A stretch of 64,000 bases of DNA from Escherichia phage vB_EcoM-VpaE1, in sequence record KM657822. One strand, written 5' to 3'. The notes beneath the pieces were generated by a model, which had not been told where the DNA came from, did not search any database, and saw nothing but the letters and a program-made list of their open reading frames with translations. Of the stretch, positions 1,248 to 2,031 are shown in pieces; position 1 is the first letter of the stretch; every line of letters starts with the position of its first letter. Position numbers and translations under genes: made by a program.

Positions 1248-1322
1248 ACAGAAGACCAATTACAGCAAACTTAATCTTATTCATCTGAAGGTAAATCGGA
1301 CAAAGAAGAGATTTGGTCTGGT
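1248..1322 (+). repeat. inter-tRNA hairpin element copy 1 (ACAGAAGACC-AA...TT-GGTCTGG)
   Basis: Conserved 5' box ACAGAAGACCNNTTACAGCAAA and 3' box NNGGTCTGG; 7 bp stem AGACCAA/TTGGTCT. Confidence 0.5.
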
Positions 1323-1332
1323 CATTAAGAAT

Positions 1333-1409
1333 TGCGGGTATAGAGAAAGGGCGTCTCACATGTCTCATTAGCATGGTATCGGCAGGTTCGACTCCTGCAC
1401 CCGCCTCCA
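1333..1409 (+). tRNA. tRNA-Met (CAT), unpaired 1-72 position
   Basis: Anticodon stem CATGT/GCATG, loop ctcatta; T-arm GCAGGTTCGACTCCTGC; U1-C72 mismatch. Confidence 0.6.
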
Positions 1410-1414
1410 AATTT

Positions 1415-1482
1415 ACAGAAGACCGTTTACAGCAAAATTAAATGAAATTTTTAGCGGAAAAAATTGAAAGATACGGTCTGGT
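1415..1482 (+). repeat. inter-tRNA hairpin element copy 2 (stem AGACCGT/ACGGTCT)
   Basis: Same boxes as copy 1 with compensatory change AA/TT to GT/AC in the stem. Confidence 0.5.
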
Positions 1483-1494
1483 AATACTAAACAT

Positions 1495-1571
1495 GGTTAG
1501 GAAGCACATAAGGTATGTGCGGTCGCCTGTTAAGCGAATGGCACAGGGTTCGAATCCCTGACTAACCGCCA
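1495..1571 (+). tRNA. tRNA-Asn (GTT)
   Basis: Anticodon loop ctgttaa, T-arm CAGGGTTCGAATCCCTG, acceptor GGTTAGG/ACTAACC, CCA. Confidence 0.65.
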
Positions 1572-1580
1572 AATTTAAAT

Positions 1581-1668
1581 GTGTCGTTATCCCGTAGATG
1601 GTAGCGGTGGGGACTGTAAATCCCTTGTCATTGAGACTCGGTAGGTTCGACTCCTACACGGCACACCA
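1581..1668 (+). tRNA. tRNA-Tyr (GTA), long variable arm
   Basis: Anticodon loop ctgtaaa, long variable arm, T-arm GTAGGTTCGACTCCTAC, acceptor GTGTCGT/ACGGCAC, CCA. Confidence 0.65.
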
Positions 1669-1673
1669 ATAAA

Positions 1674-1751
1674 GGTTATGTAGTTTAATCTGGTTAAAAT
1701 ACTCCCCTGTCACGGGAGATGATGAGGGTTCGAATCCCTTCGTAACCGCCA
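1674..1751 (+). tRNA. tRNA-Asp (GTC)
   Basis: Anticodon stem CTCCC/GGGAG with loop ctgtcac, T-loop TTCGAAT, CCA. Confidence 0.65.
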
Positions 1752-1811
1752 ATTTTGAGAGGGCTATTTAGCCCCTCCCTTAAAGGGTTCTTACGAGTAT
1801 TCTTTAAAGGA

Positions 1812-1887
1812 GCAGAAGACCAAATTCAGCAAGTTACTTAAAATTTCAAGCCAATTCAATTTTGAAAAAATTTAAAACTTGGTCTGG
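1812..1887 (+). repeat. inter-tRNA hairpin element copy 3 (stem AGACCAA/TTGGTCT)
   Basis: GCAGAAGACCAAATTCAGCAAG ... TTGGTCTGG; preceded by AAGGGTTCTTACGAG motif also found at 4808. Confidence 0.45.
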
Positions 1888-1899
1888 CTCAACAAATTT

Positions 1900-2031
1900 A
1901 CAGAAGACCGTTTACAGCAAAACTTAAACAATCTATTTCTCGGTAAAGAAAAGGAGAAGGTTCGATTCCTTCACTCGGCAGATGTCGAGTTGGTGTAATG
2001 GTAGCACTTAAGATGATAAACAACGGTCTGG
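1900..2031 (+). repeat. inter-tRNA hairpin element copy 4 enclosing a tRNA fragment
   Basis: ACAGAAGACCGTTTACAGCAAAA ... ACGGTCTGG; interior holds an isolated T-arm GAAGGTTCGATTCCTTC plus acceptor-like pieces. Confidence 0.45.

Follow-up and report, generated by a model that had tools for sequence, protein, structure and literature searches.

The 64-kb window analysed here (the whole stretch of 64,000 nucleotides from Escherichia phage vB_EcoM-VpaE1, sequence record KM657822) belongs to a Felixounavirus (Felix O1-like phage) and contains four related elements among its tRNA genes, which very probably are genes for Y-RNA-like small non-coding RNAs that partner the Ro60-fold (DUF2828 plus vWA) protein encoded upstream of them. 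The same previously undescribed RNA family most likely accompanies the gene for this protein in very diverse phages, and we regard the elements as a new Y-RNA-like variant that does not reach the gathering score of any Rfam family. If so, they provide concrete candidate RNA partners for a widespread phage protein family, and a compact and easily mutated module (a helix plus CAGCAA) with which the choice of RNA by Ro60-fold proteins might be probed.

Each element consists of a closing helix, the sequence YUA-CAGCAA beside the 5' strand of that helix, an A-rich 3' side opposite to it and a variable insert. The pattern AGAAGACC-NN-WWWCAGCAA occurs at positions 1250, 1417, 1814 and 1902 and nowhere else in the window (0.13 occurrences expected by chance), and each occurrence has a matching 3' box, which bears out the four copies claimed in an earlier reading of this DNA (the sequence-only reading). 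The 7-bp closing helix present in each copy (5'-AGACCNN paired with N'N'GGUCU-G-3') joins the two ends of the RNA, with the covariation of AA/TT versus GT/AC that had been described for it. All four copies are on the plus strand. Copy 1, a short Y-like RNA (1253..1320), has the boxes AGACCAA/TTGGTCT (1253-1319), the helix 1253-1259/1313-1319, UUA-CAGCAA at 1260-1268 and its 3' G at 1320. Copy 2, also short (1420..1480), has AGACCGT/ACGGTCT (1420-1479), the helix 1420-1426/1473-1479 and UUA-CAGCAA at 1427-1435. Copy 3 is a third short Y-like RNA (1817..1886) with AGACCAA/TTGGTCT (1817-1885), the helix 1817-1823/1879-1885 and AUU-CAGCAA at 1824-1832; the boxes of the sequence-only reading hold for the copies generally, except that copy 3 departs from them (GCAGAAGACCAAATTCAGCAAG). 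Copy 4 is a long, YrlA-like RNA (1905..2030) with AGACCGT/ACGGTCT (1905-2029), the helix 1905-1911/2023-2029 and UUA-CAGCAA at 1912-1920. Against a covariance model, R1, that was built from 26 elements, copies 1 to 4 score 46.4, 47.3, 42.4 and 32.1 bits, respectively, and they are the only R1 matches in the window.

The degenerate fifth copy proposed for positions 3734-3810 does not belong to the family and was rejected: it has only ACTGAAGACCGT in common with the other copies, has neither CAGCAA nor the 3' box, and went unmatched by the family model when the threshold was relaxed to E<=10 and the filters were off. The separate 15-nt motif AAGGGTTCTTACGAG does recur exactly, at 1783 and 4809 only, rather than at 1785 and 4808 as first reported. 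Several other identities for the elements were tried and set aside. A role in protein coding was rejected for ORFs of only 30-83 aa, none of them independently supported, the longest of which (1159-1410, minus strand) overlaps tRNA-Glu and tRNA-Met. The ACAGAAGA box had suggested a self-cleaving ribozyme (hairpin- or hammerhead-like), for which neither an Rfam ribozyme match nor the core motifs were found. Membership in a known Rfam family was likewise rejected: gathering scores were reached by tRNAs only, the YrlA and Class I matches being below threshold.

The 3' two-thirds of the Ro60-fold protein gene (DUF2828 plus DUF7788/vWA) lie at 1..913 on the plus strand, with the stop codon at 911-913, and all four copies are situated 340-1120 nt downstream of it on the same strand. 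Between the gene and the elements there are two promoter-like sites and two tRNA genes. The two sites, sigma-70-like matches at 933-961 and 1024-1053 (plus strand, 10/12 each in a consensus scan) upstream of the first tRNA, are likely to mark the start of a polycistronic tRNA and small-RNA transcript, an assignment that we infer in a region where the number of promoter-like sites equals the shuffle expectation. The next promoter match is at 2430-2458. Copy 1 is flanked by tRNA-Glu (end 1241) and tRNA-Met (start 1333), copy 2 by tRNA-Met (end 1409) and tRNA-Asn (start 1495); copy 3 follows tRNA-Asp at some distance, and copies 3 and 4 occupy the gap ahead of tRNA-Lys. Such positions between and ahead of tRNA genes, and the fact that no terminator was found between the promoters at 1024 and 2430, would suit processing signals or spacers of a polycistronic tRNA precursor (points of entry for RNase III or RNase E) that are functionless once cut out. 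Substrates of RNase III typically have long-range stems, which might also be counted in favor of this explanation; the evidence against it comes from other phages and is given below.

The window protein matches the Pfam domains DUF2828 (3e-19), DUF7788 (5e-44) and VWA_2. Its full-length homolog P0001 (471 aa, 98% identical to the window protein) was modelled with AF2 (pLDDT 86.6, pTM 0.87) as a ring of HEAT repeats with a vWA domain after it, the architecture of Ro60/TROVE proteins. In a Foldseek search of the PDB with this model, the top 11 matches were all Ro60, Rsr or TROVE structures (2i91, E 2e-8, TM 0.64); these align over the whole length with TM 0.52-0.65, except for 2nvo at 0.37, and the Ro60 chain of Thermus phage phiLo (9l5y, 9kop) is among the best structural matches. 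A link to Ro60 at the level of sequence was sought and rejected: neither the window protein nor P0001 matches the Pfam TROVE domain (DUF2828, DUF7788 and VWA_2 only), and a profile search of PDB sequences found no Ro60 for the DUF2828 protein, so that the connection rests on the predicted fold. The DUF2828 plus vWA protein is proposed as the partner of the RNAs. Its mycobacteriophage homologs carry the annotation "Ro-like RNA binding protein", and by tblastn 707 records of a phage collection contain homologs of the DUF2828 "RNA-binding protein". For Felixounavirus Bas63, the Ro60-like gp130 counters the Ppl defence, and the authors of that study guessed that Y RNAs are hidden in the downstream tRNA array (PMC11482910).

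In 10 cultured phages of diverse kinds, the same module is found beside the homolog of this gene. A covariance-model search in related phages, which the sequence-only reading had named as a check, was carried out with R1 and found the pairing conserved. In 230 kb there were 40 matches, every one with the same strand as the Ro-like gene; 75 independent IMG/VR loci encoding the protein yielded 67 more at E<=0.1, again all on the gene strand, so that the strands agree in 107/107 matches over the 230 kb and 654 kb searched. At least one match was present in 49 of the 75 metagenomic loci, and none at E<=0.1 in the other 26; the median distance from the gene was 184 nt, with 49/67 matches within 300 nt. 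Copy number varies among phages, from 1 to at least 7. The helix is unconstrained in sequence while its pairing is kept, apart from a second pair that is nearly always G-C and an invariant 3' G after the helix (among 93 phage elements, helix G 99%, helix C 99%, 3' G 100%; in the window the ends are AGACC.../...GGUCUGG). The outer stem pair covaries as AU, UA or GC, and the first scan did not select for that pair. Compensatory change is heavy in the stem of the IMG/VR matches, which is 98.6% paired (157 double-change cells, a level reached in 0/500 shuffles). Because the scripts that picked the training set and the long-type set require pairing, the pair counts on A2 and A6 are in part circular; independent support comes from the location and strand of the IMG/VR matches and from this covariation of their stem. 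The pairing of the stem is thus conserved by compensatory change in phages of Proteobacteria, Firmicutes, Actinobacteria and Campylobacter, which strongly supports the "small structured RNA" that had been one of the earlier suggestions.

These comparisons leave RNA processing, another of the earlier suggestions, very unlikely as the primary role of the elements. In the Staphylococcus phage L015 and the mycobacteriophages L013 and L019, elements occur beside the Ro-like gene without any flanking tRNAs; the control stretches from the tRNA clusters of T4 and T5 gave one weak R1 match (16.5 bits, E 0.18) and none that was significant; and a cleavage site needs neither a strict CAGCAA nor a tRNA-like insert.

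An insert of the latter kind distinguishes copy 4 from copies 1-3, which are without it. It can be parsed as a circularly permuted tRNA-like domain, all on the plus strand, consisting of a V arm (1932-1955), a T arm (1956-1972), a closed acceptor-like hairpin (1973-1990), the dinucleotide UG (1991-1992) and a D arm (1993-2007). The minimum free energy fold of copy 4 forms a multi-branch junction (z -2.29), and its acceptor-like hairpin shows compensatory changes relative to phage SUSP2. The RNAalifold consensus of 18 long RNAs contains the closing stem plus the T, acceptor-like and D helices, with compensatory changes in 21 of 23 pairs and 97.1% of cells paired, a count to be read with the pairing-based choice of the long-type set in mind; a MAFFT alignment of 8 long RNAs (A4), in which two sequences were misaligned, was left out of model building. 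Across phyla it is the structure of the tRNA-like insert that is conserved, through compensatory changes. The possibility that copy 4 is a true circularly permuted tRNA gene (giving a mature tRNA after circularisation) was rejected on three grounds: an anticodon loop is missing; the acceptor stem is capped by a loop of 4 nt and has no CCA; and both ends sit in the conserved module that copy 4 has in common with the copies that are not tRNA-like. The sequence-only reading, in which the interior of the elements was variable and AT-rich, does not hold for copy 4 with its T arm, acceptor-like hairpin and D arm; it passed over this domain, as well as the link to the upstream gene.

It had also suggested miniature mobile elements. 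The inverted termini of mobile elements, or of recombination scars, would be sites for a transposase or homing enzyme, and the insert of copy 4 would consist of pieces captured from a tRNA gene. The multiple copies, their inverted-repeat-like ends, the differences in copy number between phages and the prevalence of homing endonuclease genes in phage tRNA regions could all be cited for such an origin, to which we nevertheless give hardly any credence. Every one of the 107 matches has a single orientation relative to the Ro-like gene, and they cluster within a few hundred nucleotides of it. The stem sequences differ between copies while the pairing persists, which points to selection on pairing rather than on a terminal sequence recognised by a protein, and the conservation of the tRNA-like structure noted above is equally difficult to reconcile with captured fragments.

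Two further explanations accept the elements as functional but dispense with the Ro-like protein as the partner of a free RNA. In one of these, which we consider unlikely, the elements act in trans as base-pairing RNAs or sponges, their CAGCAA either pairing with a host or phage RNA or imitating one, and they do so independently of Ro or with some other binder, for example an RRM protein. What stays invariant is a seed-like stretch of 6-9 nt, CAGCAA being modelled as unpaired by the covariance model, and the closest look-alike in sequence, the Class I RNA of Dictyostelium, directly binds the RRM protein Rnp1A (PMC7919456). The elements are tightly linked to the Ro-like gene, both in position and in strand, in phages whose hosts come from four phyla, which argues instead for a phage-encoded partner, and an invariant 6-nt seed across such hosts would need a universal target, none of which was identified. 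The other explanation, that the elements are cis-acting operators in the 5' or 3' UTR of the Ro-like mRNA that serve autoregulation and are not free RNAs, is suggested by the many copies within 10-300 nt of the start or stop of the gene. It is highly improbable in view of the two promoter-like sites and two tRNA genes that intervene in the window, the occurrence of several tandem copies that are upstream of the gene in some phages and downstream in others, and a tRNA-like domain with no obvious role in an operator.

As partners of the Ro-like protein, the Y-RNA-like molecules might share a transcript with the tRNAs, made from the promoters at ~933 and ~1024, and be released by the same enzymes that trim the tRNAs on either side. 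The Ro-like ring protein would dock on the module of helix plus CAGCAA, and the variable insert or tRNA-like domain might act as an effector or tether that recruits or gates other factors, for instance PNPase or tRNA-recognising enzymes. Such a complex might survey or repair RNA, or might counter defences while the phage infects its host.

Among known Ro60 partners, the bacterial RNAs YrlA and YrlB (RF02553; Chen et al. 2014, PMC4201824) resemble the phage RNAs in several respects. Both groups have their genes within a few kb of a Ro60-type gene and share its strand (<~4 kb from the Ro60 ortholog for YrlA, a spacing and strand found for all four copies, with a DUF2828 protein in its place), and both have ends joined by a helix and a conserved motif near the 5' end. 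YrlA and copy 4, alone among the copies, have a tRNA-like domain with its arms in the same order (V, T, closed acceptor hairpin, D), and both the Yrl set and the window combine a long RNA with shorter ones that are without the domain, copies 1-3 being like YrlB. They differ in that the YrlA motif GNCGAA(N0-1)G, the proposed contact of Rsr, lies in a helix, whereas the phage RNAs have ACAGCAA at the equivalent position, as part of the unpaired YUA-CAGCAA (the Rfam alignment sets CAGCAA opposite cggCgaA), and in that the YrlA partner is a Pfam TROVE protein rather than one of the DUF2828 clade. Relatives score 28.7-45 bits against RF02553 (long relatives of copy 4, 38-45 bits, E 1e-4 to 1e-6), copy 4 itself (window 1890-2045) gave no match to Rfam YrlA at E<=10, and no member reaches the gathering score of 69. 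The design of a Y RNA as a tRNA mimic would thereby extend to a second clade of Ro-like proteins that is unrelated in sequence.

The Ro60 of Thermus phage phiLo binds two Y-like RNAs, Yrl1 and Yrl2, that are encoded beside its gene (PMC12135203). As here, a phage Ro60-fold ring protein is associated with at least two adjacent small RNAs in which a 5'-3' stem flanks an internal loop with a short conserved motif, but the phiLo protein is a TROVE-type Ro60 and its RNAs carry CGAA, which is missing from the present family; its RNA binding and its complex with PNPase were shown experimentally (PMC12135203). Metazoan Y RNAs are also small, with paired 5' and 3' ends as the Ro60 site and a variable loop as the effector, and their partner has the same ring plus vWA fold as the model of the DUF2828 protein. 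They differ in having no sequence similarity (Rfam scans of the window gave no match to Y_RNA) and, in vertebrates, a site formed by a bulged helix with GGUCCGA. The T4 RNAs rnaC and rnaD and the T5 RNAs RNAI, RNAIII, RNA1 and RNA2 are small stable RNAs, some of them tRNA-like, that likewise occur among phage tRNA genes, are presumably freed by tRNA processing and have no function assigned in their annotation; these regions differ in lacking a significant R1 match, and no Ro-like gene is annotated in the T4 and T5 stretches examined.

The closest likeness in sequence is to the Class I RNAs of Dictyostelium (RF01414). The short copies match this family repeatedly below threshold: 11 phage elements score 13-32 bits, and nothing else matched in the sequence scanned, with 19.7 (copy 1) and 13.2 bits in the window and 31.8 bits for the best relative against a gathering score of 41.5. 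In both groups of RNAs a 5' G opens a helix of ~6 bp that joins the ends and varies in sequence while keeping its pairing (RF01414; PMC7919456), this G being paired in the phage RNAs, too, with the C of the 3' CUG(U), and UUACAGCAA directly follows the 5' strand. The positions invariant in Dictyostelia (C6, C9, A10 and A11) are those invariant in the phages; of the 11-nt Class I motif CCUUACAGCAA, copies 1, 2 and 4 have UUACAGCAA (9/11) and copy 3 has AUUCAGCAA. Both have a G-poor interior, an A-rich tract before the 3' strand, a 3' end in C-U-G, similar median lengths (57 nt for Class I versus 58 nt) and clustered genes. The Class I RNAs differ in that an additional nucleotide, C, separates their helix from UUA, which leaves the phage consensus YUA-CAGCAA one nucleotide nearer the helix. 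They are also eukaryotic, restricted to Dictyostelia, and transcribed from genes that each have their own DUSE ~60 nt upstream, unlike the phage elements, which by their gene organisation are part of a polycistronic tRNA array. The literature on DUF2828, PF11443 and Class I binding proteins held nothing useful on a dictyostelid DUF2828 protein, and the motif strings were not found in one part of the dictyostelid proteome files of PMC7919456. We offer as a tentative possibility, more doubtful than probable, that the phage and Dictyostelium RNAs are one family in which the helix, UUACAGCAA and the 3' CUG dock a Ro60-fold (DUF2828/TROVE-vWA) protein. The module would be portable, since it forms a free 60-nt RNA by itself, provides the closing stem of a permuted tRNA-like RNA, and caps the anticodon arm of tRNA-like RNAs of ordinary topology. 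If this were true, the Class I RNAs, so far regarded as peculiar to social amoebae, would be the amoebal counterpart of Y RNAs, and if their likeness to the phage RNAs reflects a common protein partner, the 20-year-old question of what these abundant amoebal RNAs do becomes testable.

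Four matches to the pattern AGAAGACC-NN-WWWCAGCAA lie in the window (at 1250, 1417, 1814 and 1902, against 0.13 occurrences expected), and there are no others in the 64 kb. The sequence-only reading had described four inter-tRNA elements here, each closed by a 7-bp stem, and this was borne out: all four 5' boxes are matched by a complementary 3' box, and the 7-bp helices lie on the + strand at 1253-1259/1313-1319 (copy 1), 1420-1426/1473-1479 (copy 2), 1817-1823/1879-1885 (copy 3) and 1905-1911/2023-2029 (copy 4). The reported covariation of the dinucleotides, AA/TT in copies 1 and 3 and GT/AC in copies 2 and 4, was confirmed, and the suggestion that the elements are small structured RNAs was right. 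The window is that of a Felix O1-like phage (Felixounavirus) with 25 tRNA genes on the + strand within bases 1080-5917; coverage of bases 1000-2400 reaches 80% or more in 236 phage records, the best 40 of them at 95-99% identity. The earlier observation was essentially correct except for a proposed fifth copy at 3734-3810, which has only a 12-nt stretch in common with the others and was rejected as a family member, given the absence of any score (filters off, E<=10) from R1, a covariance model built from 26 short elements. The segment 3734-3812 has a stable fold by itself (-23.8 kcal/mol, z -2.5).

Bases 1-913 hold the 3' part of a gene that we call, together with its homologs, the Ro-like gene; the 303 C-terminal residues specified there have Pfam matches to DUF2828, DUF7788 and vWA. 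The gene is annotated as "RNA-binding protein" or "vWFA protein" in the records of related phages and as "Ro-like RNA binding protein" in those of mycobacteriophages. A 471-aa full-length homolog with 98% identity to the window protein was modelled with 30 relatives (pLDDT 86.6, pTM 0.87). The top 11 PDB structures matched by Foldseek were, without exception, Ro60/Rsr/TROVE entries, aligned along their entire length, among them Xenopus Ro60 (2i91; E 2e-8, TM 0.64), the Ro60 of Thermus phage phiLo and D. radiodurans Rsr; only isolated vWA domains followed. A profile search of the PDB sequences with the DUF2828 protein found no Ro60, and the modelled protein therefore has the Ro60 fold and belongs to a sequence-distinct clade. 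In several unrelated phages (L009 and L018, two other loci with the gene; Listeria phage P200; Citrobacter phage Ci1; Aeromonas phage LAh_6) the Ro-like gene lies a few kb or less from genes for an RNA ligase (RtcB-type or Rnl) and a CCA-adding enzyme, neighbors that are compatible with an RNA-repair neighborhood.

A simple scan (5' G, six paired bases, 3 nt, CAGCAA and a complementary strand with a terminal C) detected such elements next to the homologous gene in SUSP2, Klebsiella KP13-16, Campylobacter F357, Ralstonia RSP15, Listeria P200, Pseudoalteromonas J2-1 and the mycobacteriophages Nicholas and JoeDirt, and seven tandem elements lie upstream of the gene in Aeromonas LAh_6. When 26 short elements were aligned, the 5' G, CAGCAA, the C and the 3' G were invariant and every stem was different. 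The 100% pairing of six of the seven helix pairs is circular, having been demanded by the scan; the outermost pair, which the scan did not demand, is also 100% paired (AU 21, UA 4, GC 1; n=26). In the 64-kb window R1 matched copies 1-4 and nothing else. Across 230 kb from cultured phages it gave 40 matches, every one on the strand of the gene, among them unselected elements in one Staphylococcus and one Bacillus phage.

An independent test set consisted of 75 metagenomic viral loci (654 kb), in which the encoded protein is 38-47% identical to the query. R1 (E<=0.1) yielded 67 matches, again all on the strand of the gene, with at least one match in 49 of the 75 loci; the median distance to the gene was 184 nt, and 49 of the 67 matches lay within 300 nt of it. 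In the metagenomic alignment, pairing of the helix is 98.6% and 157 cells show double changes, a level that none of 500 shuffles reached, and all slid registers of the alignment are less than 48% paired. In 30-kb controls, each spanning the tRNA cluster of T4 or T5, R1 gave one weak match (16.5 bits, E 0.18). The elements track the Ro-like gene rather than the tRNAs.

The interior of copy 4 had been taken for variable AT-rich sequence, but it is no mere filler and folds into a multi-branch junction (z -2.3). On the + strand, a variable-arm-like hairpin (1932-1955) is followed by a canonical T arm (1956-1972, GAAGG-UUCGAUU-CCUUC), directly after it by a 7-bp acceptor-like hairpin with four closing bases (1973-1990, ACUCGGC-AGAU-GUCGAGU) and, after a UG spacer, by a D arm (1993-2007, GUGU-AAUGGUA-GCAC). 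The insert is a circularly permuted tRNA cloverleaf with a closed acceptor stem, and the 5' and 3' termini of the RNA take the place of the anticodon loop. A search for permuted T-hairpin-D cores with a structural parser yielded 34 on the strand of the Ro-like gene (one a duplicate record, and some possibly tandem tRNAs) and none on the opposite strand; the CAGCAA module encloses most of them, for total lengths of 108-135 nt. For 18 of these long RNAs, copy 4 included, RNAalifold independently predicted the closing helix and the T, acceptor-like and D helices; two-sided changes preserve pairing at 21 of the 23 consensus pairs, and 97.1% of the cells are paired (equaled by 0 of 500 shuffles) in this set, which was preselected by a parser that demands pairing. 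These long RNAs form a coherent subclass. Within the Ounavirinae, the acceptor-like hairpin shows a compensatory difference between the window (ACUCGGC/GUCGAGU) and SUSP2 (ACACG/CGUGU). In two other loci with the gene (L005, 5376-5440, and L047, 6203-6264), permuted cores carry CCA in the acceptor-closing loop (for example, CTCCCCG-ACCAATTCAAA-CGGGGAG) and resemble the 3' half of a tRNA, CCA included, joined to the 5' half of the same tRNA; they may be either tandem tRNAs or genuine permuted tRNA genes.

Directly 3' of copy 4, bases 2031-2179 form a 149-nt RNA-like structure (z -5.95 versus shuffles) with a 24-bp closing stem, a multi-branch interior and compensatory changes relative to SUSP2; a hairpin within it at ~2133-2155 (AGAC-CUUAAGCAA-GUCU-GG; AAACC-CUUUAGCAA-GGUUU in SUSP2) resembles a copy of the CAGCAA module in collapsed form. 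In LAh_6 (L007, 1050-1166) and Ci1 (L008, 6417-6531 and 6538-6651), tRNA-like RNAs of ordinary topology, with ends at the acceptor stem and CCA present, have an anticodon arm capped by the module in permuted form (3' strand-CUG, short loop, AG-5' strand, UUACAGCAA), which suggests that the module is a portable unit; one of them is annotated as a pseudo-tRNA. The 15-nt motif AAGGGTTCTTACGAG, previously placed at 1785 and 4808, does recur exactly, at 1783 and 4809 only, as a feature distinct from the four copies. The motif is the apical portion of a small UACG-tetraloop hairpin (within 1783-1807 and 4809-4833) whose lower stems differ (UUAAAG/CUUUAA and UAAGG/CCUUA), ~30 nt past tRNA-Asp (ends 1751) and directly 3' of tRNA-Gln (ends 4803), respectively. 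The sequence TTTTGAGAGG(G)CTATTTAG lies 3' of a tRNA at both 1752-1775 and 3981-4000; the latter supplies the ribosome-binding region for an ORF starting at 3999, and the absence of the ATG makes the former look like a relic of a small ORF that was lost. A 250-nt tRNA-free gap, opening with a strong promoter-like site at 2430, holds weak matches to permuted tmRNA (RF04321, 2357-2540, 32.5 bits, E 6.6e-4) and tmRNA (RF00023, 2472-2663, 14.3 bits); ARAGORN called no tmRNA in 2357-2663. Further tRNA-free gaps also look structured: the one at 2741-2978 contains a tRNA-like stretch (~2884-2966, paired ends TGGGACG...CGTCCCA-TGCCA) called by neither ARAGORN nor Rfam, and another a 20-nt inverted repeat (3240-3259/3298-3317). 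In Listeria phage P200 (L014, 2913-3464), a ROOL RNA match (RF03087, 86 bits, E 7.6e-16; gathering score 99.1) lies ~1 kb upstream of the Ro-like gene.

Comparative analysis shows a conserved, strand-specific family of predicted RNA structures, tightly linked to a Ro60-fold gene and with one member that mimics a tRNA. In the likeliest mechanism, the RNAs would be co-transcribed with the tRNAs from promoter-like sites at 933 and 1024 (consensus matches only) and released by tRNA-trimming enzymes. The helix, CAGCAA and terminal G would serve as a docking unit for the Ro-like ring, and the variable insert or tRNA-like domain would tether or gate other factors, by analogy to what Y RNAs do for PNPase. 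Such a complex would act in RNA surveillance, RNA repair or counter-defense.

None of the elements reached the Rfam gathering score of any family. The short elements show an unexpected likeness to the Class I RNAs of Dictyostelium. The Rfam model for these (RF01414) gave 11 matches to short elements at 13-32 bits, all below its gathering score of 41.5; each coincides with an R1 element, and nothing else was matched in the scans. D. discoideum Class I sequences read GUUGAC-C-UUA-CAGCAA...GUCAAC-UG. In these and in the phage elements, a 5' G pairs with the C of a CUG at the 3' end, the ~6-bp helix is free in sequence and UUA-CAGCAA is present; the interior is poor in G, A-rich sequence precedes the 3' strand, the median length is 57-58 nt and the genes are clustered. 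Positions C6, C9, A10 and A11, which do not vary in any of the Dictyostelia, are the ones that are invariant in the phages. Class I RNAs differ in having one additional nucleotide after the helix and in gene organization, and their known direct binder is an RRM protein (PMC7919456).

The elements also resemble Y RNAs. We found no literature on RNAs associated with DUF2828 proteins; supplementary tables from 2014 may already list some mycobacteriophage long RNAs as YrlA-like. The Ro60 of phiLo binds two Y-like RNAs encoded beside its gene, each with a stem between its 5' and 3' ends and an internal loop containing CGAA (PMC12135203). In the Felixounavirus Bas63, a Ro60-like protein, gp130, is encoded directly upstream of the tRNA array and is reported to counter the Ppl defense (PhageMaP preprint, PMC11482910); from this description we infer that it is an ortholog of the window's Ro-like protein. 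The preprint speculates that some annotated Bas63 tRNAs may be Y RNAs (PMC11482910), and the elements described here, placed between annotated tRNAs, are better candidates than the tRNAs themselves. The Rfam YrlA model (RF02553) did not match copy 4 and scored long relatives at 29-45 bits (best E 8.5e-7, from a scan of 63 kb), short of its gathering score of 69; YrlA has a paired GNCGAA motif, opposite which the phage CAGCAA falls in the Rfam alignment, but CAGCAA is modelled as unpaired. Bacterial YrlA RNAs have the order V, T, acceptor stem-loop, D (Chen et al., PMC4201824), exactly the permuted design of copy 4. The elements fit best as a new variety of Y-RNA-like partner for Ro60-fold proteins.
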